Source of the DNA: Takakia lepidozioides
Lineage: Eukaryota; Plantae; Bryophyta
Direction of reading: 5' to 3'
Assembly: GCA_030704615.1 (NCBI GenBank)
Contig: CM060732.1
Coordinates: forward strand, 10,912,001-10,976,000
Length of the DNA stretch: 64,000 nt
The number at the start of each line of letters is the position of its first letter. The first letter of the stretch is position 1. Of this stretch, positions 24,521 through 62,766 are shown piece by piece. The notes beneath the pieces were generated by a model that had not been told where the DNA came from, did not search any database, and was given only the letters and a program-made list of their open reading frames with translations. Both the position numbers and the translations under genes were made by a program.

Positions 24521-24581
24521 AACTTAGGATATCTGATATTAGTCATACGTTGCAAATGACCCCACCATCTTGTTTGGATGG

Positions 24582-24850: not shown

Positions 24851-24887
24851 AGGGCAATAAAAGAAAGAGAGAGAGAGAGAGAGAGAG

Positions 24888-24997: not shown

Positions 24998-25209
24998 ATG
25001 TAGGTAGTTTCTGTCCGTTTATGTTCCGCTCAAACTATATGGTCTTATCTAAGTACTCCCCTCATCTCCACTCTTTATACATTCAAAGTGGATGCAAGGA
25101 ATTGACTTAAAATATGCCATTGTTGCAGGTCTTGTTTCCAGTCATGAGTTTCAGTACCTACATGAGGAGTTTAACGGTCCCTTCCTCAGAGCCTCAGGTG
25201 AGTGCCCAC

Positions 25210-31641: not shown

Positions 31642-32727
31642 GGTGAGAGAAATATTGGCCTCCCCTCCGCGTTCCTTTCCTTCCTTCTAGACCCTCAGCT
31701 GGATTACAAGTTTGGAATGCTTGCCTAGAGAAGAAACCCAAGCTCATGATCTCACCCAACAATGTTGTTGATGAGAAGTTGTTCTCTTTTTCTCCTCATA
31801 AGACTATGTTGATATTATCTGTCCCTACATAGCTACCTCTCTCATAATCACTCCATTTTGTTGTCTTGTTGAAACACTAACACTCCATCATCTCATAACT
31901 GGACTGGAAATTATCACTCGCTCCGAGTTATGTTCTTGCGTTTCTTGCCATCATTGTCATCTCCATCTTGGTGGACGTCATCTCCATGGCGCTTGGTGGG
32001 CCCTGACTTCTCCCCATTCTTCTTCCTCTTCAACTCCAATTTCCTCCTCCATGTGCCGCTCATGCTGTGGGTTGGATGCAGATGATTGGTTTGCACACCT
32101 GGTATCCTACGACTCTTTCGTTCTGTGTAAATCCAGCAAGATGTAATCCGGCGCTGTACCAGCCAAGAAAAACCCACACGCTACCTCCTACATCAGCTAG
32201 TTCAAAGCGAGGGAGGAAGAGAAAACATGATTGAAGATCATCCCAAACGTATATGAATGCAAAGAAAAGGGAGCAGAGAGCTGCAAAGACCCTGCACCAA
32301 AAGGCAAAAACATGGGATTCGATGAGCCAATAGCTACCTGCGTTTGCTGGCACCCCTCCATGTGGCACTCCTTCAGACGTGGCATGCACCATGTTTGCAA
32401 CAATTTCCATAATTCATACATTTCCAAATTAGAGAAACCAATGACTTTTTTAATTCCTACAGCGCTGATCTGGCCTGTGGCGACTCTGGGGCGTAGCATG
32501 TGTGCCTCTCTGGCTCAGAAAGGGGGTTACTGTTCCCCTATAGCCATCACTCAAGTTTCCTTCCAAACCACCTTGCATGTGATTAGATAGAAGCTTCTCC
32601 GCCTCTTTATATGGCTCCAGCAGGTCTGGCAGCCTTCTAAAGAGGCTTCAATCGGCTTTGTCCACTGGACAAGGTTTGGGGCCTGCTGCCCCAAATTTGT
32701 TATGCTTTGTCCACTGAGGTGGCAATA

Positions 32728-34262: not shown

Positions 34263-35873
34263 TCAAAGACCCTCTTGACTTCCATTTGCAATCCGGTTGC
34301 CTGCTGGTGCAGCCTGATCCTCATCATTTTCACCTGATAAATCTTCCAATGATTTTTGATTCGTCTCAGGCACAAGGAATGTAAAGAAGAAACCCACAGC
34401 ATTGATGATTGCCATAATCATCAAGGTTGCCTTCATGCCAATGCCCTTCTTATAGCCACCAGCGTCAACCTGGCTTTGGTGCGTGGACTCTGAGGCGTAC
34501 AGGAATCCAAACGCACCAACAATAGCCCCAGCTTTACCAGCTGCAGCTGAGATACCATGGCAAGTGGACCGTAATCTCGCTGGAAACAACTCAGCAGGCA
34601 CAATAAACGTGGTACTGTTTGGCCCAAAATTGGCGAAGAAGAAGGTCAAGGCATAGAGAATAATAAAACCGAGGTGGTTGTGGTTCTTCCAATGGTAGTA
34701 GGGGATGGAAACGGCAAACATAAACACGGACATGAAAAAGAAACCCTGCAACTGGATGGCGAATCTCCCCAGGTGATCAATGAGAGCAACCGTAAACCAG
34801 TAGCCTGGTACTGTTGAGCACAGGGCGATAATTGTTTGTGCCCTTGCAATCTTGAAGACTTCTTCGATAGCACTCATATATGAGGCTTTCGGCAGCCAAC
34901 CCACAGCTGTGAAAACGTCCTTCTGAAACAAATTTCCACTGTAGTAGCCGATATCAAGCAGGAACCAGCACATCGACGTTCCAAGCAGCTGAATGCCATG
35001 CTTGTGGAGAAATTCCCTTGAGAACAGACCGTACTGCACCTGCTGCACCTGCTTTTGATCCACCATATTGTCAACATCAAAGTGCACATCCATTACCATT
35101 CCCATATCTGCCGCCGCCTGCTTCCGGTTACCCTCCACCAATGCTGTGTAACGCGCGGTCTCGGGCATCCGTAGCCGGTAGTAGAAGGTCAATAAGGCAG
35201 GGACAGATCCAAGTGCAAAGATGATGCGCCATACAAAGTCGGCCTGTGTAGGAGTAGAACCAATCTGATCTTTGTTGAAAGGCGGCCGCGGATACAAGTG
35301 ATTGAAAATTGCGGCAACAATAACAGACACGGCACCTGCTGCAAGGAGACCTACCCCTTGCATCGCAAACACTGCGGCAATGAATGCTCCGCGAGTTTTC
35401 GTATTAGCGTATTCAGACATGATTGTGGCCGACAGAGGGTAATCTCCGCCGATGCCGAACCCGAGCCAAAATCTAAAGAAGCAAAGTGTAGTCATCACAG
35501 ATTTCGCTGTGTGGCCAAATGAGAGGGACGATGCTATTGCGCATATGATCATCATCAACAGCGTGATACCATAAACTTTCTTCCGGCCTAGCTTGTCTCC
35601 GAGCCAGCCAAAAAAGAGCTGCCCTAGCAAAGTCCCGACCAAAGCAACTCCGGTCACAGCAGAATTGACCCCCGCTGGTAAGACACCAGGTTTTCCAGTT
35701 GCTGGATTGTAGTAGTAGATCCGACCTAGCAGCTTGGTCAAAAAGGATATGCAAAAGAGATCGTACGCGTCAGTAAAGAAGCCCATCCCGGCTATGATGA
35801 TCGCCGTGAAATGGTACATCTGCGTTTTGGCCTTATCTAAGGCCTGCAGCACCTCCAGCTTCTGTTTCGCCAT
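34263..35873 (-). CDS. PHT1: High-affinity phosphate:H+ symporter, PHT1 family (536 aa, intronless CDS)
   Basis: PHT1 signature [13 protein letters not shown], plus [39 protein letters not shown] and [38 protein letters not shown] likely 5'-UTR intron spans 36175-35879, with TATAAA at ~36289-36294. Confidence 0.98.
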
Positions 35874-36509
35874 CTTTTCTGGAACCCCTACACAATTTCA
35901 CAACGCAACACACTTCAAACACCTCAACGCTTCCTCCACATCACAGACAGAGCAACTCCGTGCACGCACTCCCCAAACCTTAACAACCCAGACCCCGACA
36001 AACACCAAAACCACCCCGTAACCACGTACACAGAGGGATACAGAGCGTCTCAGAGAATCACCCCCACTACCACACGCACCGCTCAAAATTCCAACCTTCA
36101 ACACCAAGAGAGGCCGACAGACACCAGATTTGCCGCACACCAAATCGACCGGCCACCAAGTTGAACCAAACTTACCAAGGGTAGAGTCAGGCAACAATCA
36201 AGTGCTTTTCCAGCGATGGCACAAGCTCCTCCTCTACTCCGCTACCCTCCTGCCTCCGCTGCTATGGCAGCAAGCCACGGTGTTGCGGTTTATAAGCTCT
36301 GCTCGCATCGCCCGCGTCCTCTGCTGCCACCACCCAAGCGCGCCCTCGCTCTTGTGCTTGTGTGCCAGACGCTCGCCTCCTTCCTTGTTTCACCTGCCCG
36401 CCCTCCTTTCGCCTTCTCCTCTGCCCGTTCTATTTTTAGTTTCCATCTATTTCTGTTTTTAATTTACTGGGGTCCGCCACCCGCGGTTAACTAACCGCGG
36501 TGCGTCAAA

Positions 36510-38051: not shown

Positions 38052-41000
38052 GATAATCCCATATGGCTTGTCGGGCCAGCGCGCTACGCGAGTATATATG
38101 TATGTAGGCAGATACAGCAGCGACCTGGCAGTTTCTTTGTTGGTAGATCTGTGTAAAGGGTGGCGACGGAAGGTGGAGTGACTACTACTCGACAACTGCT
38201 CCGCTGACCACATTCGTCCGTGTCAGTTTTGTCATCCCCTCATTCCTATCTTTTGTTTCTCTTTTCAAGTACTATTTGAATTTTGAGGGTAGGAAGAAGT
38301 CATTAGCTGATGGTGGAGGGTAAGGTCATGATGTGGGTACCTTTGTAGACTTATGGCGAGTTTGTGTAGGTATATCCTTGGATTGTGCATCATCACACTA
38401 ACAGCATGATGATGACTGGTCGTACTAGTTTGAATCTTCACAACCCTTGAATCAATGAGAAATTGCATATAGCATGCATCCATTCAGTATTCATTCACCT
38501 GTCATGGTTGTTATCTAGAATTACCTACTTCTAGTTAACTAGGACATTTTAGATATTTATATTTATATGTTGTGTGTTGAGACTTCATTTGGTCTCACAT
38601 GCCAAGTGAGGTGTCGAGCCTCACTTGGGACATGGGGATAGGTTTTCCCCTAGTGAGGATGGAGGAGGCTCATCTTCTTGTAGTTGAGCCTCCATGAGCC
38701 TCTCTCACCTCCATAGCTCTAGGTATTGAGAGGGAGTGTGGTGAGGGCTTTGTAGGGTGGATTCCCTTAGCAAGGGTGCCCTTGGCTTGACTTACTTTAT
38801 GTGATTGAGTGGATTCATGAATGGAGGGTTTCCATTATGTTCACTTTCATTATCACTACAAGAAGATCACCTTATGCTTGTGAGTGCGGAGTGTACGGAT
38901 AGTTTTGCACTTGTGTTGGTGTACACCAAGGAGTGAGAGAGCTAGGGAAAGCTCAGGTATCTCACAAGGCTTGCAAGGGAGAGTGTGTTTAAATTGCATC
39001 AAGGAGGTGGAGAGCTCAAGGAGAGAGCTCTTGAGTTACAAGACTTTGCAAGTATTATAGGGAGAAAGTCTTGTGGTGTGTGAAACAAAGGTTTCAAAGT
39101 TTGAGAAGAAGGAGCGTCATCTCTTGTATCTCAAGTGTTGTGACAACCATTTGCCAAGGAAGTGGCTTATATGATGAAAAGAATACATTGAGGGTTTGTA
39201 GAAGCATTATTGTGCACCAAGGGTTTTGAGAGCTTGGAAAAGAGCTCTTGCATCACAAGAGAAGCGTCTTGTATGTGGAGAAATAGACGCTAGGGTTTCA
39301 AGAGCAGCAACTCTAGTGTTCATGGTGTGAAAGAGAAGCCAAAGAGCGGCACATGCTTGGGTTAGAAACACCATAGAAGGAGTACAACAATGATAGCTTG
39401 AGGAGCATTGAGTAGCTCAAGAGAAGCTAAGAAGTAGTTGTTTTATCCATGGTGAAATGAAGCCAAGTGGGGTTTCATTTTTGATTGACAAACAAGCAAG
39501 CTAAGGCGCTAGAAGGAGTTTTTTGCTAGTCTATGAGTTCAGATTGCTCTTGGTGAAGCAGTGATTGACCAAGCAAGTAACGCATGTGTGGAGCATGTTT
39601 TCCAAGTGCGGCTTCCAACTTCAAGCTTGAGGAGAGCTAGAAGGTGAAGAAGAGAACAGTCATTCTTTGTGTATGAGGTGATGCTTATGTGGAGCATGTT
39701 TTCAGCCCATTGAGGCTTCTTTTCAAGCCTGGAGAGCAAGAAGAAAGGAAAAAGGGCTGGTTTCCACTTAGGTGAGGAAAAACACTTGTAGAGCACATGT
39801 TTGAGTTGGGGTTTCAACCTTAAGCTTGAGGAGAGCACGACTCTTGAGCTAGTAAGTGAAGGGACTTGAATCTTCATCTTTGCATGAGATGGAGATGTAT
39901 TTGATACTTGGAGAAGCAACACATAGAAGCCAAGAATGGAGCATGTGTGTGGATGGCCAAGGAGGGAGCACATGAATGAGTGCAAGACTTGGTTGCTTGT
40001 CAATGAGGTAAAAAGCTTGATTCTTGAGTTCCAAAGAGAAGTGAAAGCTGTTGTGTGGCAAATGCATTGCTAGGTGAGATGGAATCAAGCTTGGTTGTGG
40101 CTTGAGGTGAAGAAGATCAAGGTACTTTGCCTTGGTATCTCATAGAAGTCATGGATGCTTGAGGAGAGCAAGCATGAAGCTCAAGGAAGCCCAAACCCTA
40201 GCTTGGAATGCACAAACCCTAGCATGAGATGCACATCAAACCCTAGGTGCATGGGAACAGTCACCAAAGTGTGGGAACCGTCACTGTAGTGTGGGAACGG
40301 TCACTAAGATGTGGGAACGGTCACTATAGGCTGGGAACATAGTGATATAAAGACAATATAGGGCTTTTGGAGGATTTTCAAGGGCCTTTTGGAGGATTGT
40401 TTGGGGGATCTTTGGGGTCTTTTGGGGAGCTTTTGGAAGACACTCTGAGGAGCTTTTGTAAGGCACTTTGAAGAGCTCTTGAAGAGGTATTTGAATGACT
40501 ATTTTGAGGCCTATTTAAGGTCATTGAAGGCCAAGTTTTGGCAAGTTTTTTGAGCCTTGGAAGGCTATGTGGAGGACCATTTGGGGTCTTTGAAGGCCAA
40601 GTTTTGGCAAGTTTTTGGAGCCTTGGAAGGCTATGTGGAGGACCATTTGGGGTCTTTGAAGGCCAAGTTTTGGCAAGTGTCGTGCGCATACATATCGCTA
40701 CACAACTACATCGCTGTCCAAAACCACACAACACATGTGCACACCACACACTAGTATACCACTAGTCTACCACTAGTCCAACCACTAGTCCAACCACTAG
40801 GCTACAACTAGTCAGTCACTAGGCCACTATGCTGCCCACTATGGCAGTCACTAGTCCACACAATGATAAAGAAGAAGAATACAAGCACAAGCTCATGCGA
40901 GCTCACAAAGCTGAAGCATAAACTCATGCATATATAACCTCATCACTCAAATACAAGTCAAGCCAAGTGCACCCCACGCCATGGGGAATCCACACTACGG

Positions 41001-41638
41001 CGCCATAGCTAGGCGCGGTGAGGCTCAACTCGAGAAAGATGAGCCTCCCGCGCTTGCCGTGAAGATAACCACTCCAGGGCCTAAATCTGCCTTGACCCCT
41101 GGATTGACACTTGGGCCAATCCCAAATGTCAATATGTAAAAGCTAGCTATTTCCTAGCTAGTTTCACACTAGTGGTAAAATAACTTGACAGCTGTCGTGC
41201 GCATACATATCGCTACACAACTACATCGCTGTCCAAAACCACACAACACATGTGCACACCACACACTAGTATACCACTAGTCACCACTAGTCCAACCACT
41301 AGTCCAACCACTAGGCTACAACTAGTCAGTCACTAGGCTGCCACTATGCTGCCCACTATGGCAGTCACTAGTCCACACAATCGCCCCCCTAGCTGGTGCT
41401 TAGGTCCCTCTAAGTCCAGGTAGCCCAAGATGTGATAGTGACCATAGCCTCACTAAGTCCTCCACCACTATCCCTACTACACTCAAACTCGATAGATCAA
41501 GAGGCCGGGTGCAAGAGTTGCCCCATCGTTAGTCGCCGTCTTGCAACCTGTGAACTTGAGCTTGGGATCTCATGTATTGACTCCTATGAGCTTGGCCTCC
41601 CATGTCTTGTTAGCTGCCTCCAGTCATGTCCACTGCCA

Positions 41639-41790
41639 CTATCCCAAGCAGTGTGGACACAACCAATCTCCGTCAGGAACCTTCTCAAGAGGTGGTCAAG
41701 CATCCCATATGCCAACCCCTTGAGCATCGATCACACACCAGCATGGTGGCTGCCCCTTTGGCAGACCCACAGAGCATGCACCTCAAACCT
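41639..41790 (-). CDS. PHD finger at the integrase C-terminus (one frameshift)
   Basis: CMLCGSAKGAATMLVCDRCSRGWHMGCL, then in the next frame PLEKVPDGDWLCPHC: a complete C4HC3 PHD pattern. Confidence 0.88.
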
Positions 41791-41799
41791 GCAGGTACC

Positions 41800-42942
41800 A
41801 CTGCCAAGTTTGGGTCAACTCTGCCATCGACATTGGGAAGGTGACATGGCGCACAATTACGCACATGGTCCTTCCAAGTCATGCCATCCCGACCCTCAAG
41901 ATCAGGACCCCTGAGGGCAACACCTCTCGAACCCTCAGAATAACACGCCCTGCAGTAACATCCAGAGTCGTAGGAGCAGTCTGCTGCAAATAAACATAGT
42001 CACCAGGGCTAAACCTCCGAACCCCAGGACGATATCCTCCACCACGTATAGTGGCATACCTCAACGTATCACGGTGCTGTGCAATGGCAAGGTTCTCAAA
42101 AGCCATGGGCATGACTTTTGAACAACTCTGCACGCTGATCACATGCACGTACCCACACGTCCGGATCGTCAAGGTTAAGGACTTGAGCAGTGTCCCTACG
42201 AATGGCTGCAGGCAAATCCGGCTCTCGGCCAAAGAGAAGGAAATATGGTGAGAAGGAGGCAAGTGATGCTTGTTTGCTGAACCTGTAGCCCATGGCTAAC
42301 CAAGGAACCTGAAGATCCCAATCTCCTAGGTGTCCCTTCTGCAAGCCATACTTGCGCAAACCCCTCTTCACCGTCTGAACAACTCTCTCTGCTAAGCCAT
42401 CGGCCTCAGGATGATCCCGAGAAAGTGTGCGGTGGTCTATCAAGGCTTTATCACACAAAGCCTGAAACTCCCCCAAGAACTCTCTCCCTTGGTCCGTGAG
42501 TACCTCAGCTGGAGCACCAAATCGGCTAAGCACACGATCCAAGAATGCATACGCAGCCCCCTCACTAGCCTTGTCAGGCAATGGAACCAACTCAATCCAC
42601 TTGGAGAAGTGCTCCACCATCACCAACATATCTGTGGTGGCGCATAGTCAGTGGCAACGGTCCTGCGAAGTCAAGACTCCACCTGTAGCCCAATCCCATG
42701 ATTGGTAAAGGATGCAACTGTGGTGTAGGGGCGTTGAATGAAGCACGCACCCTGTCACACACCATGCACCTAGCCACGAACTGTTGCACCTCTGTATGCA
42801 TACCACGCCACCAATACTGCCCCTGCAGTAAACTGTGAGTGCGTCGCACTCCAAAATGCCCCAACTCCTCATGGGCATGCCGCACTAACCGTGCACGCTG
42901 TGTGGGGTGAGGCACAATCCTCACCCGACCATCCTCCCACAC
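41800..42942 (-). CDS. DDE integrase (frameshifted)
   Basis: HHCC zinc domain (HAHEELGH..CMVC). Catalytic WSLDFAGPLP, VLTDQGREF and HPEADGLAER; FSPYFLLFGREP. Confidence 0.93.
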
Positions 42943-43249
42943 TCGAAGTAGGTGTATCCCCTCCCACTTGAACCTCTTGGCGTTGCAGGATCCGATCCCT
43001 CTCCCTGGCAGTCACAATGGCTGCCGTGTCTCCCGTGCGGAGGTAGTCCAACACAGCCGAATCCTCATGTATATCTCTGGCACCACCTAGCTCATCACTA
43101 GCCTCAGGGTCCTCAGACACTCCGTCTACAGTCATCCCTGTTGTAGGTCCAATCTGACCTCCGATGCCAAGATACACAAAAATGCAGATGCGTGCCATCC
43201 CGGCACCATCTCCTCGTCCGTCTCACCATGCCACCGAGCTCCAGTGTCA

Positions 43250-44598
43250 TCCTGCTGGCTCATGCATGGATTGCGACTCAATCCATCCGCATCCCGATTG
43301 ACCAAACCCGGTCGATGCACAACCTGAAAGTCATACTCCTGGAGTATAAGTGCCCACCGTGCAAGCTTCCCCGTAAGCTTGTCTGACTCCATCAACCACT
43401 TGAGTGGCTGGTGATCCGTGACAAGGGTGAAAAGATTGCCGTATAGATAGCACCTGAAGTGTGCCACGGCCCACACTGCAGCTAAGCACTCTCCCTCATA
43501 TGAGCTGTACTTAGCCTCTGCAGCGTTGTTCGAGCGGCTAGCGTAAGCCACTACGAACTCTCTTCCCTCATCATCCACCTGTGTGAGCACCGCTCCAAGC
43601 CCCAGCATGCTCCAATCCGTATGCAGCTGAAAGGGACGCCCCCTGATAGGTCGTCTCAAGATAGGCGCCGAGGTCAACCTCGCCTTGAGCTCTTGAAAAG
43701 CTCGTTCCTGCTCATCTTCCCACTGCCACTCCTGGTCCACCTTGGTCAGCTTGGTTAGAGCCTTTGCAATGGTACTAAATCCCTTGACAAACCGTCTATA
43801 ATAGTTTGCCAACCCCATGAAAGCTCGAACTCGGCTCACATCCGTGGGGCGTGGAATTTGTGCAATGGTACTTAGTCTGCTGTACCCCCAATCCTCCAGG
43901 ATATATCATGTGACCCAGATACTCAATCTGGTTGTGGAAAAACTTGCACTTCCCCGGATGCAACTTCAATCCGTGCGCTCTCAAGCGCTCCAATACCACC
44001 TGAAGGTGTCTCTCATGCTCCTCCATCGTAACACTAAAGATGATGATGTCATCTATGTAGCACCGAGCAAAGTCCACCCCTGCTAGAATCCTATCCATGA
44101 CTCTCTGAAACTCTGCAGGAGCATTCTTAAGCCAAATGGTAAGAACCGCCACTGATATAGGCAATCCTTGCCGTGCTCATTGATCCCCCAGAATGCCGTC
44201 TTCTGCTTGTCCGCCTCCTTGATTGGCAACTGGTGATATCCGGATCGTAAATCCAAAGTGCTAAAGGCCTTAGCATGCCCGATGGCATCAAAGATCTCCT
44301 CTGGTGTTGGCATGGCATACTTATCGGACTTGGTCTGACGATTTACAGGCCGGTAATCACCGCACATACGTCTCTCCGTCCAATTGCCATAGACATCCTT
44401 CTTGGCTGGCATCACTGTGGCTGAAGCATACTCTCCACCAGAGAGCTCCACCAAACCTGCCTCCCAGAGATCTTGAGTCCTCATCTGAATCAAAGACCTC
44501 TCCATGTCACTGTATCTATAGGGTCTCCGAAAGATTGGCGTGTCAGTGGCCAACTCAATACGGATCTCTTGACCCTTCAGTGCTCCCAAGTCCTTCAA
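43250..44598 (-). CDS. Reverse transcriptase and RNase H (frameshifted)
   Basis: RMCGDYRPVN, FSTLDLRSGYHQ, LPFGL/KNAPAEFQRVMD, CYIDDIIIFS and LKLHPGKC. RNase H motifs LHTDWS, YSSYEGECLA, LVTDHQPL, N.DADGLSR. Confidence 0.95.
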
Positions 44599-45059
44599 AC
44601 TGAAGGCAAAGCAATTCCTGTAAGCCCTCAGGAACCGCCGTATACGTCGTCTCTCTCCTCCGGTGACAATGGGTCCAATGTCAGGCTCCCAATTGTCCTC
44701 CGTAACTGCAACCTTAAGTCCAGTGGGCTTAGAGGTAGAGGACGCGTCCCGTGGTTGCTATGTTGCAACCTCTTGAGCAGTACTCCCTACCTGCTCAGTC
44801 AATGACAAGGCCTCATCCTGCCCATCATCTCATCCTTGAGGACCTCCTCAACCGAGAAGAATCCCCAACCTCATCCATCACAGCCGCCTTGGCTGCCAAC
44901 TCCCTCTGAACCTCGAGCACCTCCCACGTGTGCCATGGATGCATGCACCCCGTGGTCCTCACATGCTCGCCCCCACTCACTGCCTGTACCGTCTCGGTAG
45001 GCAGAGAGACCATTGAGGGAAGTGTACTCCGCACTCTGCGTTGCTCAGCCAGAGCCAAG

Positions 45060-46000
45060 CTGATAATCCAGGTCAAGCAATTGAGATCCATTGCTTGCCC
45101 CAACACTTGACGACGTGATGCCTCAGAAAGAGACGACACCGCCGTGGTACCAGTGGTAAAACCCATTGCCCGCTCACGCTCGTCAGCATTAGGCTCCACT
45201 AACTGCTGCAACTGAGCATCCCACAGGAGGCCAGGTCCACTATCCCGGAAAGCATGCGATCCTGGGAAGCTGAGCAGTGTAGGTAATGCTGCTCGTGGTT
45301 GACCCACCTTGTTGACCACTGCCAAAGGCGAACGGTCATCGTGTCTCACACGCTGAGACTGCCTCCCTGTGTCCAGAATGTTATCCACTGTGAGATGTGC
45401 TGGCCGCTGCACCCCATCAAATGCACGCTTGAGCAGTGCGGGTGGCATCAAGTTAGTCCACCATAGCCGTGGACGATGAGCCCGTGACCCCACTGTAGCT
45501 GCATCTAGCAACACTGCTGACCCAAGCCACGACCGGACTTGATGCACACTGGCCATCACCCTGGCCCGAGAATCGCCCATCAGTGGCACATTCTCCAAGA
45601 TGTATGCTGGAGATACAGCTTGATGAAGCTGCAAGTGGCGCAAAACCCGCACCATCTCCCAAAACAGACCCGACCTCGAGTCTCGCAATCCATTGCCATG
45701 CCCGGCTGATGAATGCCCTTGGCAGGGCCAACCTGCCACTACCAGATCAATGGAGCCAACCCGCTCCAAATCCTGCGCCCCCAGCAACGAAATGTCTGCT
45801 GGCAAGGCCTGCTGATATCCACGAATTGCAGACACCGACAACAACTCAGGGTACCGCTGCACCAACTGAGCAACATGGCGAAGTGAAACGTCGTGCAGTC
45901 TCATCCCTCTCCACATACAGGTAACGCCGAACTCGTACACCTGCCTGTAAACAGCAGCCAATCCGGTGCTGATCCCGCCAAACAAGTCCAGAAGACAAAT
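45060..46000 (-). CDS. DNMT3-like C5 cytosine DNA methyltransferase domain inside pol
   Basis: Motifs in canonical order: I LLDLFGGISTG, II (shifted frame) YLYVERD, III ADI, IV DLVVAGWPCQGHS (catalytic Cys codon 45724-45722), V SGLF, VI YILENV, VIII SRAHRPRLWWTNL, IX ERERAMGF..GTT, X RRQVLGQAMD. Confidence 0.92.
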
Positions 46001-46439
46001 GCCTTCATCACTGCCACACAATAGGTGTGGTGTCCAATGGAGACAATTGAGGTGGTCCTGGTGCAATCCCCACACTCTCCTCCTCTCCTGACGGTACAAA
46101 AGCCTCCACCCAGGCTTGTTGCACCCGTCGATCAGCATCCCGCTGCAAATCCTTGCTCGTGCCCCACAATGGAGTCTGAGCAACCATGGTAGGCAACTCC
46201 GCCATACCATACATGTCATCCTGCTCTCCCGGAGGTGGTACATCCTCTGAATGAGCATTGCCCTCAAGCAACTCTCTAGGCCAACTCACTGCCGCTGTGA
46301 ATGCTGCTAGTGTCGGCATCTTGCCTCGCTGGGCAACCGCAACTCCTCCTATGAACGTCACAGGGAGCTGCACACGCCGGCCCTCCCTGACTGCCATGCA
46401 GGCCTATAGGAAGCTGACTCCTCCCAAAAATCCAGGGTG

Positions 46440-46800
46440 AAGCCCATGGGGTACAACACTGCCCCACCAACCAGGACATCGTATGAGACTGCGTCTGTCA
46501 CAATGGCCTTGGCTCGCATCACTGAGCCATCTGTAGGGTGATCCGGCCGTAGTCTGATAGCCAACTCACGCCGTGTCATGCCCCGAGCCTGCTCCGATCC
46601 TCCCAGAGACGTCTGTATCTGGAAAGGACAAGGCTCCATATCCGCCTCCGTGAGGCCCAAGCCTGCAATAGCAGCTCTGCCCAGCATCAATGGCTGAGCT
46701 CCCGAGTCCAACAAGACCCGCAGTGGCCGGTACCTCTTGCCTGCCGGTCCACTCAAACAGAAAATGCCATCCTGGTTGTCTAACATGACAACTCCAGGTG
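46440..46800 (-). CDS. Retropepsin aspartic protease
   Basis: VLLDSGA active site and C-terminal YDVLVG motif, located between gag and DNMT. Confidence 0.85.
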
Positions 46801-47291
46801 TCACCATGGCGCGCTCAATGGCTGGCCTAGCTGGCAGCTCCATCAACCTGGCAGCTGCAGCTTGCCATGGCGCCGCCGTGGCAGTCTTGACCCTCAATCC
46901 GAGGATCCCTCCGGCACTACACCTCCCACTATCTCCGCAGAAGATGAAGTAACCTCCCACTCTCACAGAGTGTAGCTGCCAGCCTGAACACCTCAGCTGG
47001 TCCCCCGGCGTCGCAATCATGGTAGCCGAGAACAATGGAGCCTGGCACACAGATGTGGCCGCTCCTAGCAGCACACTAGCTGCCGTAGCCTTGGCAACAC
47101 TAGGTAGTGGTGCTACCCGTGTAGCTCTCCCCAATGGCATAGTAACCTCCGCCTCGGTAACAGTCGGGCGAGAACTAGGTGCCATGGATGGCGTCGACAC
47201 TGTCTCCGCCAATGTGAATGACTGAGGAAGCCTAGCCTGACGGCTTGCCTCCCCACGCTGTGGATCCAACTCCACCTCTGCACCTCGTGGC

Positions 47292-48905
47292 TCAGGAACG
47301 TGCTGCTCCTCGAGTCACGGCTGCAGCAGACTCCACCTGCACTAGTGGTAGTGCTGCTCCACACATGAATCCCATGCCTCCCATATCTCCTCCCTCAGGA
47401 GCAGGAGGTGGACCATCCGGCCTTAGAGCCGGTACCACCTGAGCTGTAGCCATGGCAGCGAGCCTCTGCTCTAGCTGCTGAAGCCGGTTGGCCATGCCTT
47501 GGTCAACACCCTGACCTCCGCGTCCTTGGCCACGTTGAGCTTGCCCTTGGCCTGCACCTCGTGGCTGGCCACCTCGTCCTCTCTGGGCTGCTCCACCTCG
47601 CCCCCGGCCACCATTGTTCCCTTGGAACTGGCCTGGGCGCAACTCAGGATGCAAACCATAACACTGGGCCTCTCCATGCCCGTGCTTGCCACAATGCCCA
47701 CACTGCAACTGTGCAGGCTGTGCATGTGCCGCCCTTTGCCTCCCTGGGCAATCCTTCTTGACATGGGGTCCTCCACATGTCCAGCACACCACATCCGCCC
47801 GTTGTTGGCCAGCAAATGAAGGGAGAGACCCCTGCATCTGAGGTCCTCTCTGCCCTTCCCTGAGCTTCACTGAGCCCCCTTGTTGCCTTGAGCACGTTGA
47901 GGTAGTGGTTGGCTAGGAGCACCACTACCCCGTGGTGTCTCCTTAGCAAATCCCACCATGACCACTCGTTCCTCCACCATGTTGAGCTCTATCCGCTCTG
48001 CCAGCAAAAACACATTTGCTAAGGTGGTTGGGCCGCTTGTAGGAGAGTTGCATCCCGCACCCTTCTCCTCAGCTCCTTGTCCAATATCCCATACCAGAAT
48101 TGGACTGCCTGAGCTTCCGTAACCCCTTGGGTTACATTTATCAAGCGCCTCATGCGAGTGAAAGCCTCCCTCAAGCTCTCGGTCGGCTTCCGTTGGAACT
48201 CTTGCAAGCTCCGCAACTTCTCTGTCCTCACCCCTTGGTAGTTCCCTCTCAACTCTTCGAAGAACTCCACAACAGGGTTGAAGGCAGGGCACGGGTGCTA
48301 GTGCTGGTGCGGTAGTGGCTTGGGTGGACGTCGTAGCTACTGTACCACCAGTCCCACTGCTGCTTGCTGAAGCTGCCGGTGCAGCGGCAGTGTAGCCACT
48401 GCCCTCGTGGCTCTAGTGCCCCTAGTGATGGAGACATAGTCGGGTGACCAGTACATCCTCCACTCCTCGATCTCAACCTCATGCCCCCGCCTGAACTCAT
48501 GGTAATCATCCATAGGCGGCCCCTCAAGGTGCTGAAACAGCCCTTTCCATGCCATGAAGGCGTAAATAGTTGTGGATTGCGCATTTGCTGCAAATCACAC
48601 CAACTATCAAACTCTTGGATAAAATCATCCAACTCGATGGTGCCCACCGCCCCAGAGTACCTTCGTGGCCCCTTGGTAGCTCCATACATCTCCTCCATTG
48701 TGTCCCACAACAATGGCAAAGAAAAAACTTGCACCGCCGGTATGAGTCCTCCTGATTCACAATCCGAATCAGAACCTTCCGTGGAAGACACAGGAGGTGA
48801 AGGTGGCCTAAACCGCACACCTCGTCTCGTGTACCCACTAGTATCGCTAGTGCTCGAACCGGCACTGTCCCCAGCAACTAGTGGCACCTCCGTGTTGACA
48901 CTCAA
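47292..48905 (-). CDS. Gag (frameshifted) with two zinc knuckles
   Basis: Retrotrans_gag-like FQRKPTESLREAFTRMRRL; CWTCGGPHVKKDC and CGHCGKHGHGEAQC; RGG-rich tail. Confidence 0.88.
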
Positions 48906-49099
48906 CCGGTCATGAACATGTCCCTAACCCCCTCTCCACAAGGTAACCCTGTTGCGGCTTATGGTTTGGAATACTAAGTTCCTAACATAGCCTACACCTG
49001 AACTTGCATGACCATGGGAATATCATGAAGATACTCCTCAAACCGCCCTCCACGAGCTTCAAAATTCGGCCTTCCAGACCACATGCCAGTCCTTAGAGT

Positions 49100-49625
49100 T
49101 CCACAGGTCAACACGGGCCACCACAGACCAGCACAGGCCCACACAGCTCACTGGTCATTTCACACACAACAGCCAACACACATTTGGTCACAGTTTCATT
49201 CACAGCCTTCACATTCACAGCCCCAAAGGCCTCAGGCACACAGGCCCGTTCATTCACAGTCACAGGGGCACACAGCCCCTCACATTCAGCATTCACACAG
49301 CCCCTCACAGCCCGTCACAGCCCAAAGGCCACACACAGCACATTCCTGTCACAGCCCTCACACACAGGGGCATTTTTCACAGCCCGTTCATTCACAGCCC
49401 GTCACAGTTCACAGCCCGTCCACATTTCCCCTTTTGTCACAGTTCACAGGGCCTGCCTGTCACAGCCTTCCTTTTTGTTCCACACAGCCTGTCACAGCCC
49501 GTCACAGCCCCACAGGCCTGCCTCACACACAGCCCGTCACAGCCCCCCACAGCCTCAGCCTGTTCACACACACACAGCCCCACAGCCCGTCACACAGCCC
49601 ACAGCCCGTCACACCCACATCACAT
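49100..49625. repeat. Degenerate CACAGCCC(GT) minisatellite in the inner element's 5' leader
   Basis: Dozens of CACAG/CACAGCC units in ~500 bp. The ORFs called over it are low-complexity artefacts. Confidence 0.85.
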
Positions 49626-52600
49626 GGCCGCTCTGGCAGTTTAGCCATTTCTCCAAGGGGTTTAGCCACGCCAAGCTAGGGTTTGTGTCTCTTGGACTCT
49701 AGGCTTCTTTCCACCGAGCTATGGTGGCTGTGAGGAAATCAGCAAGGTATCCTTGCTCTTTCGGCTCCCACACACCACCATAGTAGCCCTAAGCCATGAG
49801 GTGGTTGCCACAAACCAAGCCTTCTTTCTCACTTAGCCTCCCCAAACACGCCACTAAACTCAATGGCAAACAACCAAGCCCTGCTGGTTCCCAGCCCTTG
49901 TGCACTCATTCAAGCACTCTCCTTGGCCATAGCATCTGTCTTAGAGCCTATTCCAGCCCCCTACACCTGCTGCTTCAAGAGTTGCGCTCCCTTCAAGCTT
50001 GAAGTTGAAACCCCAACTCACATAGGCCCTACAAGTGCTTTTCTTTCACTCCAAGTGGAAACCAGCCCTAGACCTTCCGTTCTAGCTCTCTAAAGCTTGA
50101 AAACAAGAGCCTCAATGGGCTGAAGGCATGCTCCACACATGCCCCACTCTCACCATAAGAGAATCAGCTCCTTTGCTTCATTTCTTGCACCCACAAACCT
50201 GAAAATACAAGCTTCAGCAGGCTGAAAGCATGCTCCACATGCCCTACAGGGAAACCAGCCCCTTCCTTCCTTTCTTGCACTCCCACACCTGAAAGTGCAA
50301 GCCTTCACCAGGCTGATAGCATGCTCCACACATGCATTGCCCTCACATAAGGGAAGTCAGCCCTTCCCTCTTCCTTGCTTGCCCTCCAAGCTTGAAGATG
50401 GAAGCTTCAATGAGCTGAATACATGCTCCACACATGCAACCTCTTCACACAAGAGATATCAGCCCCCTATCTTGGCTCCTTGGCTCCTTGATGCTCTCTA
50501 AGACAAGACTAAGCACTCCAGCCTTTGCCAAGCTCCTGAAACCCTAAGGCTTACATTTCCAGCCACAAGACACTTCTCTTGTGGTGCAAGAGCTCTTCTT
50601 CCAAGCTCTGAAACCCTAGGTGCACATTCCATGGCCTTGCCGCACCTCTTAGCTCCTGTTCCAGCCCTGCTCTTGCCATGACAAGAGCCCTCTCAATGCT
50701 GAAGCTCGAGATTGAAACCCAATCTCACCATACTCCACAAAGTGCACTGATTTGCCCCAAGCCAAATCAGCCCTTTCGCTTGGTCTTGCAATCCTTCACA
50801 CAATGAAAGCTCGCATTCCCAAGTCCAGTTCTCAGCTTTGCCACCAAAGCCACTATAACCTGCTCTTGACTGGTCCTCTTCCCAATCGTGCTTGCTCATG
50901 CATGTACACAATCTGAAACCATCAAGGTGCTCTGGAATTACCTGCAGCATGGTGCTTTCATCTCTGAAGCTGAAGATCGAATGCCAAGGTCTACCACCTC
51001 GTAACCCACATCGCCTCCGCTTCTAACAACCAAGAGCTCCACGGTGCTCCTTGCATAACAACTTGGTTTCTCTCATTCTCAAGCAAAAACCACAAGTGCT
51101 ACAACTAACTCGTATCTGGCACTCACAGATACGAGCTCATCTTTCTCGAGTGATAAAGAAGAAGAATACAAGCACAAGCTCATGCGAGCTCACAAAGCTG
51201 AAGCATAAACTCATGCATATAACCTCATCACTCAAATACAAGTCAAGCCAAGTGCACCCCACGCCATGGGGAATCCACACTACGGCGCCATAGCTAGGCG
51301 CGGTGAGGCTCAACTCGAGAAAGATGAGCCTCCCGCGCTTGCCGTGAAGATAACCACTCCAGGGCCTAAATCTGCCTTGACCCCTGGATTGACACTTGGG
51401 CCAATCCCAAATGTCAATATGTAAAAGCTAGCTATTTCCTAGCTAGTTTCACACTAGTGGTAAAATAACTTGACACAAGTTTTTGGAGCCTTTGGAAGGC
51501 TATGTGGAGGACCATTTGGGGTCTTTGAAGGCCAATATTTGGCAAGTTTTTGGAGCCTTTGGAAGGCTATTTGGAGGGCTGTTTGGGGTCCTTGGAGGCC
51601 GATATTTGGCGAGCTTGAAGAGTCTTTGGCGACTTGTTGAAGGACTATTTGGGATCCTTGAGGGCCGAGATTTGGCAAGCTCTTGGGGCCTTGGTGTACT
51701 GTTTGGAGTACCATTATGCAAGCTTTGGGAGCCTTAGTGAGATTGTTTGAGGGACATCTTGAGGGCTCTTAGAGAATTATTTTTGAAAATCTTTGAAAGG
51801 TCTTTATCCATTGCTTAAGCAAGAGAGTGTGGAGATAGGGTAGTGGGATGAGAGCATGTTGTGATAGGAATTGCTTTAGTCTCTCTTCACTATCGTCTTC
51901 CACCCTCTCTATAGGCCAAAACCTCTCCGTAGGTGGAGGCAAGAGTCAGTCAGGGTTTGGGCTGGGGTGTCGTGCAGGAGTGATACTGTGGAGTGTTTTT
52001 GGTGTGGGGGAGTTACTGTTTTGATTTTCTTGTGTTTGGATCCCCTCCACACCTATATACTTGACTGTGCGTCATGTCAGTTTTGTATGGGCGCTTGTTT
52101 TCATAGGAGGTTGGTCCGGATTTGATCACCGGTCAATCCTACAGCGTGCTGTCGGTGGTGAGGCTGGGGTGGTGATCAGTCAGACCATCATTGTTCTCTT
52201 ATGATGAGGCTGGGTTGATGACCAGCAGACCATAGGAATGTTTGCGGTGGATGCAGGTGCAAGTACAGGTCTACGTTAGAAACCTATTATTTCTGCTTGA
52301 ACCAGTAGCTGCAACAGGTTCTCTACCCGGTTACCTTGTGGAAAGGGGGATTAGAGACAGGTTTACAACAGGTGTGGTTGTGAGTTTTCATCACGGAGGC
52401 GCCACCAGTTGCTGAGGAGAGTGCCGGTACGAGCACCAACGATTCTAGTGGGTATACAAGACGAGGTGTGTGGTTTAGGCCACCTTCACCTTCAGTGTCT
52501 TCTGAGGAAGGTTCAGACTCGGAGTCAGGAGGATTCTCGCCGAGGGTGCAAGCCATTTCCGTGCCATTGTTGTGGGATACGATGGAAGAAATGTATGGAG

Positions 52601-53105
52601 CTACTAAGGGGCCACGACGGTACTCTGGAGCTGTGGGCACCATCAGTTTGATAGTTGGTGTGATTTGCAGCGGATGCGCAATCCACAACTGTTTACGCCT
52701 TTTATGGCGTTGAAGGGGCTATTTCAGCACCTTGAGGGGCCGCCTATGGATGACTACCATGAGTTTAGGCGGGGAAATGAAGTGGAGATAGAGAAGTGGC
52801 GACAATATTGGTCAGCTGACTATATCTCCATCACTAGAGGCACAAGGGCAGCGGCGACACCAGCAGCTACACCAACATCCCTAACTGCAAGCACTAGTAG
52901 TGGGACAAATAAAGATGGAGCTGGGAAATCCACTCAAGCTCCTCCTGCAGCACCAGCACCTGTGCCTGCCTTTAACCTAGTTCTGGAGTTCTTCGAGGAG
53001 TTGAGGAGAAACTACCAGGGGATAAGGACAGAGAAATTGCGGAGCTTGCAAGAGTTCCAGCGCAAGCCTACTGAGAGTTTGAGGGAGGCTTACACGCGCA
53101 TGAGG

Positions 53106-57530: not shown

Positions 57531-57712
57531 CAATGCACACAAGCCTGTGAGCTCCGGAAAACACTAAAGAGATTGAAGGAACAATCCGGGCAGTCCATGC
57601 AACCTCCCTCTCCAATAATTTTTTGTTCCCAGGAATTCACATCTATCCCCCTTGAATCATATTGAAATGCATGATGGAAACATGGCTTGAATCATATGGG
57701 AATGCAAGTTGG

Positions 57713-58716
57713 AAACAGTGTGCAGCACCGCACACTATGTTGAGCCCGTCATCAATGTTCTTTTTTTCTTTCAAATGTAGGCACTTAGTACACTCTTCTA
57801 GTCTTCAGTCACACTGAAATGTTTGCAAGGAACAGTGTGCGGCACCGCACACTATTTGTGCCCCTCTTCACTTTCGTTTTTTGCTTCAAAATTGATCTCT
57901 TCTGCACTGAGTTACAGTCCTGAATCACACCAAAATGGAAGCACAAAACAGTGTGTGGCACCGCACACTGTTTGTGCCCCCCTGAAACAATCGTTTTATG
58001 TTTGAATTGTAACCCCCAGGTCCTCTTTTGGAGTTCACTCACCTCTCTGTATCCCCCTTGAATCATATTGAAATTCATCCTCCAGACAGTGTGCGGCACC
58101 GCACATTGTTTGAGCCCCTCTTCAATGTTAATTTTTTGTTTGAAATGTGAGCACTTAGCACATTCTTGCATGCATAACTAACACTTGAATGGCAGCACGA
58201 AACAGTGTGTGACACCGCACACTATTTGTGCCCCCTTGGAACGCTCTCTTTTGGTTGGAAATGTATCCCTTCTGGTGTGTGAAGCAGGCTAGAATCAAAG
58301 CAAAATGGCAGCACGAAACAGTGTGCGGCACCGCACACTGTTTCTGCCCCCCTGGAACTCTCTCTTTTGGTTGGAAGTGTATCCCTTCAGTTGTTTGTAG
58401 CAGGCTTGAATCGGAGCAACATGGAAGCACAAAACAGTGTGCGGCACCGCACACTGTTTGTGACCCCCTAAAACATTCGTATTTTGTGTTTCAATTGTAG
58501 CCCGAAACAGTGAATGCCCCTCTTTGTCTCCTCTGACAGTCACCACTGCATCATGTTGAAATTCAAGATGGACACAGTGTGTGGTACCGCACACTGTTCG
58601 AGCTACTCCACAATGTTCTTTTTATGTTGAGAAAGTAGGCACTCAGCTCATGTTTTCAAAACTTCACTCGTGATGAAATGACAACTTCAAACAGTGTGCG
58701 GCACCGCACACTGTTT
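57713..58716. repeat. Array of nine 28-bp palindromes AAACAGTGTGCGG-CA-CCGCACACTGTTT
   Basis: Starts at 57713, 57830, 57946, 58084, 58200, 58316, 58432, 58572 and 58689 (spacings 117,116,138,116,116,116,140,117). Confidence 0.95.
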
Positions 58717-58755
58717 CAGCCCTCTGTATTTTAGTCACCCAACTCTGTCTGTCAG

Positions 58756-61700
58756 GCTTCAATCAACCTAAAATGAAGCAACAGTCAGTTTGGGGTACGG
58801 CACTGTTTTTGAAACCTCTGTCAAGTTTGTGTGTCGGCATGGCAAACTGGAATACTACAGCTCTACCCCTGAAGAGAGAAGGTCAGCAAAGGGGGTTGAG
58901 AGTCACATCAAGCGAGAGATGAACACCACCAGAAAAAATATTATGAGTGCTTTTGTGAAGCAGCTGACTAGAATTGCAGACCCAACCTTCGGACCAGAGT
59001 TCCTTCAAGAGGTGAAAAACCATTACAACAAACCAGGAAAGCCGGAGATGGCCTAGGAGAAGTTGCACAGGTTGTCTACCGCAGAACAGAAGGTGAAGTG
59101 GCTGCAAATATGGAACTCCAATCCCACTGTCAGGGACACCCACATGTTCCCTAGGCCGGAGAAAGAGAAGAAGACCCAACGTGTCATTCTAGTCAGTGAC
59201 AATATGATGGACACATGGCTTCACAAGGCCATTTACTGGAGCCAGGTATGATGTCCTTTGCTGTGTCACTTTCTTTTCGCTTTTCTGTCATTCTCTTTCG
59301 ATGTTTCATTGACTTGTTTTGTAGTTCATTCTTGCATTGGAATTGTTTTGCAGTTGGAGGAAATGGCCCAGTCTGTTCTACTTACGCAGCTGGCTGACTA
59401 TGGCATCACCATGACAACACCGAAGGTCACCTTCCAAGCATACATGCGGTAATGGAGAGCCACAATGTGGCAATCTTGTTTCTTCAGGGAGTTCAACAAG
59501 GAGGGTGGGATCAGTCGAACAAATGAGCTTGACCAGCAAGAGAAATGAGAGGAAGCCTGGAAACGATGCCTTTACAGGTGCAAAATGGCCTAGGCTTCTT
59601 TGTTTTGCAAAGACATTATCTCCTCCCTCCAACCTGATTTGTCTGGGCTCATATGAGTGTGCGGTGCCGCACACTCTTTTGTTCTGTCCGTGTGTAATAA
59701 CACCAACATACACACCCTGGGCCCTTCAGCCTATTTTGTGTGCGGTGATTAGAGTGTGCGGTGCCGCACACTCTTTTTGGGGGTCTTCGTGACGTGGTAG
59801 AAAATCTAGGAGACAATAGTTACAGTCTTTGTGCCGGCAGGTACATAAAGTATGTTCTCATGGCAGAGAACTGTTTGGACAAACATCCGGATTTCGTGGA
59901 CCTGTGGCTTATTCCTGCTGGCAACCATACCATGTTTACTATAGGGATCTTGCAGAACTGGGGCCCAAACCACCTTTCCAGCTGTGGTTGGTACTTGGAT
60001 TGCCCAGTTTCTGAGACCCCAATGCAGGAGGTGTCTTTGAGGGGAGAGAATGAGCGTGTAGCAGCCAGCGCCGCAACTGCTGACCTTCATGATAGAAATT
60101 TGAGGACGCTTGCAGAGAATGAGCCTCCCGCTCAGGATACCCCGGGTAAAGGTAGAAAGGGAAAGGGAAAGGATGCTGCTGTTGGTGGAGGGAAAGGAAG
60201 GGGTAAGGGGAATGGAGCACAGGGGCAGATAGGTGGGTAGGGAAGTGTTGCAGAAACTGGCCCAGCGGCAGATGTCCAGCCGGCCAAGGATACTCCACAA
60301 CATGGTAGGGGATCCAGGAGGAAGAAGAAGGGGGCGGTCGATCCTGAGGACCCGTACCATGCAGTGGAGCATCCCCTGAGGGTCATTCGCCCTACCAGGT
60401 TGGAGATGGCCAACGTCGGGTTCCTTGCCATGATGGAGTTCACGAAATCTGATTACAAGGGCGATCCTTCACCAGTGTGGGAGAGGATTGTGGAGTTCAT
60501 CGGCATGGTGCGTGTTGTCTTTTGCTTCTTTTGTGTTGTTTGAATGTTGTTTCAATCCTCTTGAGCATTTGCTTGCATGCTTTTTTGCAGGCAAAAATGA
60601 CCAAATCTTGGGTGAACGGGAAGGAGAAGACATATGCAGCCGCACTCATCATCTTGGACATCCCCGATGGGTTGACAGTCCCGGATGTCCCTCCAACGGG
60701 TGCTTGTCTAGGTTGGAATGCTTTTGATGAGCGCTACTGGCGGTGGGTTTTCTCCTTTTGCAACTTCTTTCTCTCCGATGCAGGTGTTTTGGTGCTTATC
60801 CAGTCCATCGACCTTCGCTGTCGCCGTGCACTTTCCAGCTATTTGAAAGCCTCAGGTATGAGGGTCGTGAAGACATGGAATTGTGTGAATAGCATGTATC
60901 TGACGAAGGGGGATCGTCCGGGAGAGATGGTTAATCTGCCTTCTTATTCCTCTTCTTGGTGGTTCTCAGATGGAATTGCATAAGTCACTCAAATGAATAT
61001 AGAGGGGCCGAGTTTTCAAGCTTCTTACTTCCTTGTGGATTCATGTTCGCAGACTTGTCTGTTTGAAGCGGTTTGTCTCGTCCGAGTGCATCCACCTACG
61101 ACTCCAGCCGTGATTAAGGAGTTCGCCATCACTCATGGGGGCAAGTTGAGGATAGATCCTCCCACGGATGACATGCACCACAACTACGTGGACAACAACA
61201 TGTGCTTGCGAAGGGGGAATGGGGTTCCTTGGAGAGGGGCCCATGGAGAGGAGCCCGGCTTTCATTCAAACGATTGTGGAGTGCTGCAACTATACCGACG
61301 CCAGAGTTTTGGATTTGTCCATGGGCACAGGTTCGTCTCTTCATCCTTCATATTTGATCGAGTTTGTTTGTGCATGCACTTTCAGCACTTCCTACCGTTC
61401 GAAAAGAGTCTTCAATGTCTGTTTCCTTCCTTCTATTCCATTGTAGGTGCTTCGTACCACGCTTGCCAGGCCAGTGCGCGACATCTTTTTGGGATTGAAG
61501 GGGATGCCAAAATTTGCAAGAACCTCATCATGGGTTTGGGTGGACAAACTTCTCAAGTCCTTCCGAAGCCCCTTCCCGGTGTTATTGATACTGGGGAGAT
61601 GTCCGACAAGGAGCTCGATGACGACTTTGCCTGTGAGTAAGTTCAACCTATGGATGCTTGTATTGTTGTTTCAATACCAAAATCACTGTTCTTAAGGCAA

Positions 61701-62023: not shown

Positions 62024-62170
62024 TATCAAGTTTTCTTTTGCTTTTATTCGGGGTCAATTTTGAAATGAGATGGTTGTGTGTCCATGTTGTCCTGTTTCTC
62101 TGTGACTGGACTCAGACAGAGGAGCTGGGGGCCAAAGTTCAAATGAATACGATTGTTTCAGGGGGGGGAC

Positions 62171-62720: not shown

Positions 62721-62766
62721 TCAGCTTCCATTTCAGGGTGCTTGAATTTGCCGGCATGATTTCAAT

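Follow-up and report, generated by a model that had tools for sequence, protein, structure and literature searches.

Organization of the locus

The window, meaning the whole 64,000-nucleotide stretch of Takakia lepidozioides DNA that was analysed, contains a retrotransposon together with host genes. A host PHT1 phosphate transporter gene lies at 34263–35873 on the minus strand (best single-length matches 72–74%; the gene region is also given as 34263–35897). PHT1 groups with moss proteins (SH-aLRT 96) in a quick tree with no liverwort or hornwort rows, in agreement with the land-plant setting assumed in the sequence-only reading of this DNA. The gene places the host among seed-free land plants, probably within the bryophytes. 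Other host genes lie in 1144–4604, 12370–13524, 20946–26072 and 29586–31686; we take them to encode a CCCH zinc-finger protein, an EXORDIUM-like protein, an intron-rich ABC transporter and an F-box/kelch protein.

The retrotransposon is encoded on the minus strand. Its domains are arranged in the order Gag, zinc knuckles, protease (PR), methyltransferase (MTase), stop, reverse transcriptase (RT), RNase H (RH), integrase (IN) and PHD finger. The element belongs to Ty3/gypsy, as it has the Gag-PR-RT-RH-IN order and a DDE integrase. The coding features are as follows.

48025–48698, minus strand: Gag capsid region (PF03732 E 2.3e-4, below cut-off; 57–78% identical to Marchantia P0123; frame-broken in the assembly)
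47570–47800, minus strand: two zinc-knuckle-like motifs and an RGG-rich stretch, nucleocapsid (sequence; tblastn to P0123)
46385–46867, minus strand: aspartic protease, LLDSG (PF13650 E 0.004, below cut-off; 60% identical to P0123)
45044–46003, minus strand: DNMT3-like C5-cytosine methyltransferase domain, the last domain of the Gag-PR-MTase frame
44761–45043, minus strand: post-MTase linker, coding in relatives, frame-broken here
44752–44760, minus strand: in-frame stop in a type I readthrough context, TAG CAA CCA (UAG-CAR-YYA, consensus in PMC3542737)
43871–44697, minus strand: reverse transcriptase, YIDD (PF00078)
43165–43881, minus strand: RT connection and RNase H (PF17917 E 1.2e-36)
41897–42975, minus strand: integrase with zinc finger, DDE core and C-terminal part (PF17921, PF00665)
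41648–41780, minus strand: PHD finger at the integrase C-terminus, in the place of the chromodomain of chromoviruses (PF00628)

The PHD finger is intact in the relatives L035 and L081 (E 3e-10 to 4e-10). A domain search gave no chromodomain match after the integrase; PHD alone was found there in L035 and L081. The finger is nearest to those of CHD4, PHF12, PHF21A, KDM5 and UHRF1, and fingers of the CHD4, PHF21A, KDM5 and UHRF1 types are readers of unmodified H3 tails. The long 5' leader of the element carries CACAGCC-type low-complexity repeats (49012–49700, minus strand), which vary among copies.

Several other repeats surround the element. It lies within a 66-bp tandem repeat (D2) of an older repeat (39200–40673 and 51480–51750), the left part of which resembles the element's own 5' leader (80%, inverted), and this suggests that the element inserted into one of its own relatives. 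On the plus strand, 52329–53105 holds a 5' gag fragment from a related family; it is inverted with respect to the main element and shares about 78% identity with it. Units of about 116 bp that share the palindrome-like core ACAGTGTGCGGCACCGCACACTGT form arrays at 57684–58742, 59625–59777 and 62112–62746. The arrays bound a 5-kb stretch containing degenerate ORFs, their orientation is opposite at its two ends, and they look like the subterminal repeats of a DNA transposon.

The methyltransferase resembles DNMT3

The Pfam profile PF00145 matched the minus-strand frame 46285–44825 with an E value of 6.4e-13 (49.3 bits against a cut-off of 22), so that a C5-cytosine MTase, as first recognized by eye, is present. 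The motifs, all on the minus strand, are located as follows.

45985–45974: motif I, LFGG
45730–45719: motif IV, WPCQ
45595–45587: motif VI, ENV
45478–45467: motif VIII, HRPR
45175–45161: motif IX, ERAMG
45100–45086: motif X, GQAMD

Motifs I–VI and VIII–X had been claimed. Those listed above stand in unpermuted order, with the catalytic PC and ENV present, but motif II (YLYVE) is off-frame in the assembled window copy; it is intact in relatives. Past motif I, a pair of compensating frame changes garbles about 20 codons.

Three rankings were used to place the enzyme. Sequence matches in the PDB were best for DNMT3A (1.5e-8), followed by DNMT3B (5e-6), M.HhaI (4e-4) and DRM (1e-3). A 38-row profile of the MTase matched DNMT3A at 2.5e-24, DRM at 2e-13, DNMT2 at 1.7e-7 and HhaI at about 1e-7; DNMT1, MET1 and CMT were absent from its 55 matches. 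A structural model (pLDDT 83) retrieved DNMT3A/B/C structures in 33 of 33 among the Foldseek matches listed. These sequence, profile and fold rankings, on which the likeness rests (the MTase tree held element and phage enzymes only), support a DNMT3-like enzyme at an identity of only about 20%; DRM, DNMT1/MET1/CMT, DNMT2 and the bacterial enzymes all appear more distant from it than DNMT3. The unpermuted, DNMT3-like and not MET1/CMT-like character seen in the letters alone is thus upheld. The catalytic Cys is kept in 36/38 aligned rows, the Glu of ENV in 37/38 and the RxR in nearly all. The domain search found no chromatin-reader domain of its own in the MTase part.

The window copy is young and its reading frames are broken in the assembly

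The terminal repeats of the element, designated A and B, differ between their copies by zero substitutions and small gaps only. The window copy is young. Its coding region nevertheless contains at least 16 frame changes in the assembly, and with motif II off-frame the copy as assembled is unable to encode the MTase. No stop codon occurs in the nine window segments that match the second ORF, and at the best-supported indels the extra bases are seen in other copies in 11 of 12 cases among the rows listed. The frame breaks are probably sequencing or assembly errors, since many small deletions, unaccompanied by nonsense changes or by substitutions in the repeats, are better explained by a faulty long-read assembly than by decay. 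In all four DNA-type read runs, each of the 30 element bins was covered, with hundreds of variants, which indicates a multi-copy family; read coverage of the MTase was as even as that of the remaining element.

The methyltransferase frame ends at a conserved stop codon

The sequence-only reading placed the MTase between protease and RT, inside pol and in frame with it. The position and the frame, which is that of the RT, are as described, but MTase and RT are separated by an in-frame stop, both here and in relatives. UAG-CAR-YYA, the context of this stop, is the type I readthrough consensus of tobamoviruses (PMC3542737). In the unbroken relative L035, a single TAG splits a 1369-aa Gag-PR-MTase ORF from a same-frame 1047-aa RT-RH-IN-PHD ORF, with no Met from the stop to the RT core. 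L081 has the same two-ORF, single-stop layout.

The stop was surveyed in 57 rows, comprising the window and the 56 of 80 metagenome loci that contain both the MTase end and the RT start. The linker length is a multiple of three in 40 of them. In 53/57 rows (TAG 41, TAA 12) CAR-YYN comes directly after the closest stop of the RT frame. Most of these rows (48/53) belong to a single family of the CAA CCC type, which matches five of six consensus positions, and several of the 48 are one insertion seen twice; in this largest family an ATG occurs two codons after the stop. Full CARYYA is found in 5/57 survey rows and in L081, as CAA CCA (window and L008), CAG TTA (L035 and L036) or CAA TCA (L038 and L081). 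The background in the 64-kb window is 12 of 5404 stop triplets. L008 has a second stop ahead of the MTase and L038 has a frame change in gag. Five diverged lineages differ in the six bases that follow the stop, but always inside the limits of CAR-YYA. Synonymous sites are near saturation between most CARYYA lineages, yet the stop context stays in the consensus.

The MTase thus ends the Gag-PR-MTase frame at a conserved stop, and the UAG is likely to be leaky. An MTase in the Gag-PR frame ahead of a stop of this type would be made at the capsid level, and RT-RH-IN-PHD by readthrough only; a same-frame, leaky-type stop makes packaging at the Gag level more plausible, not less. Eight related proteins have no stop after the MTase and some other relatives place the MTase between RH and IN, so Gag-level dosage would not be required clade-wide.

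The methyltransferase is inherited with the element and conserved by selection

Protein searches with the MTase returned 240 relatives of similar length and 81 longer ones. The named relatives come from Marchantia polymorpha, M. paleacea, Calypogeia fissa, Riccia sorocarpa, Sphagnum, Closterium and the chlorophyte Hariotina; no named Klebsormidium protein was among the matches. A profile search of 50%-representatives retrieved 569 proteins at E values up to 1e-30. Among the best 150 of these, 88 of the 140 new proteins also contain RT, RH or IN, mostly as RT-RH-MTase-IN-PHD, and the RH-MTase-IN order is found in 46/140 new representatives. Five Marchantia gene models of 1278–1281 aa, 95–97% alike, keep the protease and all MTase motifs and have a common end point; one of them reads DQAMD at motif X.

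Trees of the MTase and of RT-RH were built by quick search with midpoint rooting, and both carried long-branch warnings. The window copy groups with Marchantia- and Sphagnum-type copies in the MTase tree (SH-aLRT 100), which also holds Calypogeia, and in the RT-RH tree (98). In the latter, stop-bearing elements form one clade (99) and RH-MTase-IN elements another (100). Element MTases are separate from phage enzymes in the MTase tree (support 100). Recovery of the same groups in both quick trees shows, to their resolution, that the MTase has been co-inherited with the RT.

Selection was estimated among L035, L036, L038 and L081, the least broken relatives. MTase dN/dS is 0.08–0.14 in the 5/6 pairs that are unsaturated, similar to the protease (0.10–0.13) and above RT (0.04), and the linker gives 0.17–0.60 in six pairs. 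Between the window MTase and seven relatives, pN is 0.18–0.36 and pS 0.68–0.77. These codon comparisons show purifying selection on the MTase. Values of 0.65–0.96 among three decayed copies of the Sphagnum-type family, the largest in the stop survey, are as expected after insertion. Of the three outcomes named at the outset as fatal, a domain absent from sister copies and a dN/dS near 1 were not what was found; the MTase is present in dozens of loci from several genera, and its dN/dS is well below 1. On the third, an MTase out of frame with pol, the result was one that had not been anticipated, a shared frame interrupted by the conserved stop of leaky type.

Single-query searches of viral contigs gave no close MTase relative, and an alignment query found distant phage and giant-virus MTases outside the element clade. 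One 505-kb viral contig (L092:7836–8753) carries ORFs for a C5 MTase and a PHD-like protein that are not near the element clade. Three loci from prokaryotic genome bins, L081–L083, were considered as bacterial genes. This was rejected, as they hold intact gypsy polyproteins and are read as eukaryotic retrotransposon contigs in metagenome bins. L082 (3061–9516) and L083 (122–9916) encode unbroken gypsy polyproteins, 2152 and 3265 aa long, in which RNase H precedes and integrase follows the MTase; L082 has a weak Tudor-like match after the PHD. These two are likely to be algal contigs in bins labelled bacteria. More PHD- or RT-bearing relatives are nested beside MTase elements in L065 (12568–15195), L032 (1–2034) and L073/L077 (900–3100); that of L065 ends in a separate B-A-B arrangement which includes a near-palindrome.

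Element ends have split repeats and a palindrome

The ends of the window element are composed of the following features.

51476–51479: target-site duplication (TSD), 5' side; the identical 4 bases are present at both element ends
51151–51475, minus strand: repeat A1 (TG...CA, 325 bp), the 5' element end; 0 mismatches and one 2-base gap against A2
51314–51329, minus strand: predicted self-primer in A1 (position 147–162), complementary to the PBS (pairing; fold)
51135–51150, minus strand: PBS-like 16 nt right after A1 and complementary to A1, consistent with Tf1-type self-priming
41382–41392, minus strand: polypurine tract (PPT) immediately before B1, the same in relatives
41193–41381, minus strand: repeat B1 (TG...CA); 0 mismatches against B2
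41187–41196: B1/A2 joint, GACAGCTGTC, a perfect palindrome of 10 bp whose halves are the two outer element ends
40864–41190, minus strand: repeat A2, with two bases between B1 and A2
40678–40863, minus strand: repeat B2, the 3' element end
40674–40677: TSD, 3' side, 4 bp, matching the 5'-side bases

A complete, TSD-flanked gypsy element had been proposed. The domain order, the TG..CA ends and the 4-bp TSD agree with this, but the repeats are laid out as A...B-A-B and not as two full identical terminal LTRs, and the frame changes noted above interrupt the coding region. The A...B-A-B layout also occurs in L040, L066 and L073/L077. A 4-bp TSD is present in the window and at 7/7 loci with both ends (six distinct insertions). 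The palindrome GACAGCTGTC is exact in the window and in L015, L024, L038, L040, L081 and L083, including an RH-MTase-IN element, and the end site includes a CG in most families. At the A2/B2 joint the end of A abuts the bases found just past the PPT; L066 has filler there.

A PBS complementary to A1 fits self-priming of the Tf1/Tcn1 type described in PMC6317226. Self-complementary PBSs with other letters occur in L040 (17), L035 (16) and L081 (13); sequence comparison found no self-primer match in L066, L077, L038 or L083. Ordinary reverse transcription from such a self-primer and the PPT would yield linear DNA with B+GC+A at both ends. If these ends were joined into a circle and the circle then cut at one palindrome, exactly A...B-A-B would result. 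Integration from a circle opened at a palindrome inside one LTR stands at about even odds. Foamy virus integrase is known to cut palindromic two-LTR circle junctions (PMC1180852).

Shorter A...B forms with TSDs occur in L023, L051 and L006/L030. Their interpretation as integrations of one-LTR circles was dropped because L051 and the A...B-A-B locus L071 have a flank in common, which means that later loss or assembly collapse explains at least one A...B form. CpG depletion was considered as a footprint of self-methylation and was uninformative, the observed/expected ratio being 0.53 in the element and 0.51 in the window background (0.28–0.78 across eight elements).

Discussion

A model of the replication cycle

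The reading that we favour, and hold to be somewhat better than an even bet, is that the window element is a young copy of a multi-copy bryophyte Ty3/gypsy family in which the MTase is made at the capsid level by means of a leaky UAG, is packaged, and methylates the element's own cDNA before integration. Most ribosomes would stop after the MTase and a few per cent would read through to produce RT-RH-IN-PHD. The protease would free the MTase inside the particle. Self-primed reverse transcription would then yield an ordinary linear cDNA whose true LTR is B+GC+A, and the packaged MTase would methylate it, CG being the likeliest context given the likeness to DNMT3A. The PHD finger may guide integration to chromatin with unmodified H3 tails, and the new copy would arrive pre-marked, like the host's own methylated repeats. 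A less certain step, again at about even odds, is conversion of the cDNA to a two-LTR circle; the integrase would open this circle at the palindrome within one of the LTRs, and A...B-A-B would result.

We also put forward a wider version of this cycle, tentatively and as possible rather than probable. The window element may represent an old green-lineage clade of gypsy elements with PHD-ended integrases, alive in liverworts and mosses, that would combine a readthrough-dosed DNMT3, a methylated circular cDNA and a palindrome-cut, permuted, pre-methylated insertion in PHD-selected chromatin. Methylation might even determine at which of the two palindromes the cut is made. Such a cycle has not yet been described.

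An active MTase could instead target host chromatin at or near the insertion site, or rival elements, and not the cDNA in the particle. We consider this unlikely, though it has a basis in many algal relatives that carry the MTase directly before the integrase, an arrangement suited to travel with the integration complex, and in the resemblance of the PHD finger to those of chromatin proteins such as CHD4 and UHRF1. In the window lineage, however, the MTase lies on the Gag side of the stop, unjoined to the integrase, and its own part lacks a chromatin reader. A non-catalytic or RNA-directed role, such as nucleic-acid binding in the particle, protection or choice of the palindromic end site, or RNA methylation, seems improbable. 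It would account for a capsid-level dosage that appears to exceed the need of catalysis on one cDNA and for the CG within the end site of most families, and the related KnitGypsy-Dnmt3 gave no DNA methylation in yeast, a result its authors called inconclusive (PMC5890265). On the other hand, hardly any row has lost the catalytic Cys, ENV or RxR, and the nearest structures are DNA enzymes, with DNMT2 a far weaker profile match than DNMT3A.

The leaky stop itself could be questioned if RT-RH-IN were reached by splicing or reinitiation and the stop context were incidental. The ATG just past the stop in the largest family would permit reinitiation, and predicted introns join both frames in the Marchantia models P0125, P0128 and P0135. 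We nevertheless find this quite improbable, since L035 offers no Met ahead of the RT core, the linker keeps its frame with a dN/dS below 1, and the six bases after the stop remain confined to CAR-YYA in lineages that have otherwise diverged. The many frame breaks of the window copy might also suggest that a fragment of a host DNMT3 was captured just once, or that the assembly is chimeric here. That idea retains almost no probability; it is refuted by relatives with the MTase in the same position and frame at dozens of loci, by the congruent trees, by the low dN/dS and by the even coverage. Packaging of a capsid-level MTase that methylates the cDNA remains the reading we prefer.

Significance

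Why retrotransposons carry cytosine methyltransferases has been a standing question since 2018. The known hosts, Symbiodinium and Klebsormidium, are hard to work with, whereas Marchantia polymorpha is a model with genetics and methylomes. Its Gag-PR-MTase gene models are near-identical and complete in their motifs, which makes enzyme activity, readthrough and methylation of the cDNA testable there. The stop codon predicts the MTase at the capsid level and the polymerase at a few per cent, and the conserved palindrome suggests how Gypsy-Dnmt3 elements could come by their DIRS-like repeats, which have been a puzzle. Element ORFs are annotated as hypothetical host genes, which can inflate DNMT3 counts and confound the genetics of de novo methylation in bryophytes.

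Comparison with known systems

DIRS and other split-direct-repeat elements use a tyrosine recombinase and are not known to make a TSD, whereas the window element has a DDE integrase and a 4-bp TSD. SymbioDIRS-Dnmt3 is, like the window element, a retrotransposon that carries a DNMT3, but it is a dinoflagellate DIRS element with a tyrosine recombinase and an independent capture according to PMC5890265. The same source shows that it methylates CG de novo in yeast and proposes self-methylation of cDNA.

The stop context, including all six following bases, is shared with tobamovirus type I readthrough, in which the polymerase is the minor, extended product (PMC3542737). In the window element the stop belongs to a retrotransposon and follows PR and MTase instead of coming immediately after Gag. 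Among LTR elements, readthrough between gag and pol at a CARYYA context is described as rare (PMC3441728). The foamy virus offers a parallel to the proposed opening of a circle at a palindrome by a DDE integrase, but its palindrome is the LTR-LTR junction, whereas that of the window element would lie inside the LTR (PMC1180852).

Tcn1 and Chlamyvir chromoviruses are also Ty3/gypsy elements of seed-free plants or algae, Tcn1 with predicted self-priming, and Chlamydomonas Gypsy-7a_cRei has both a PHD finger and subdivided LTRs (PMC6317226, PMC9940879). Chromoviruses, judged by their descriptions, are set apart by the chromodomain, none of which was found in the window element, and the accessible text of PMC6317226 does not mention a methyltransferase. 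EpiLTRs are LTR elements that likewise pair a DNA MTase with a chromatin reader; unlike the window element, they carry a DNMT sister to DNMT4, with DAM and a chromodomain, and the accessible part of their description states that they are distinct from 'streptophyte Gypsy-DNMT3' (bioRxiv 10.64898/2026.05.21.726589).

The literature searched, which included papers on bryophyte methylation and on Marchantia and left most subscription papers outside its scope, described neither copies in land plants nor the readthrough stop nor the palindrome model. Two later papers, in their accessible parts, ascribe Gypsy-Dnmt3 elements to 'streptophytes' with land plants unnamed, and their supplements may list bryophyte copies.

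The closest known system is KnitGypsy-Dnmt3 of the charophyte Klebsormidium nitens (de Mendoza et al. 2018, PMC5890265). Together with SymbioDIRS-Dnmt3 it bears out the statement that such retrotransposons had been reported from dinoflagellates and a charophyte alga. According to the accessible text it is, like the window element, a gypsy element whose Dnmt3-type domain is intronless and unpermuted and evolves under purifying selection (Ka/Ks < 0.2), and it has DIRS-like A-coding-B-A-B repeats despite its gypsy domain set. Its DNMT is in the Pol ORF, a single ORF with RT and RNase H, whereas the window MTase ends the Gag-PR ORF at a readthrough-type stop; the comparison is with KnitGypsy as described. 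A term search of the accessible main text found neither PHD nor Marchantia, and a term search of the supplements found neither of these nor a stop codon. A retrotransposon-borne DNMT3 is thus already known from KnitGypsy-Dnmt3, and the additions made here are the position of the readthrough-type stop, the PHD-ended integrase and the palindromic ends of the A...B-A-B repeats.
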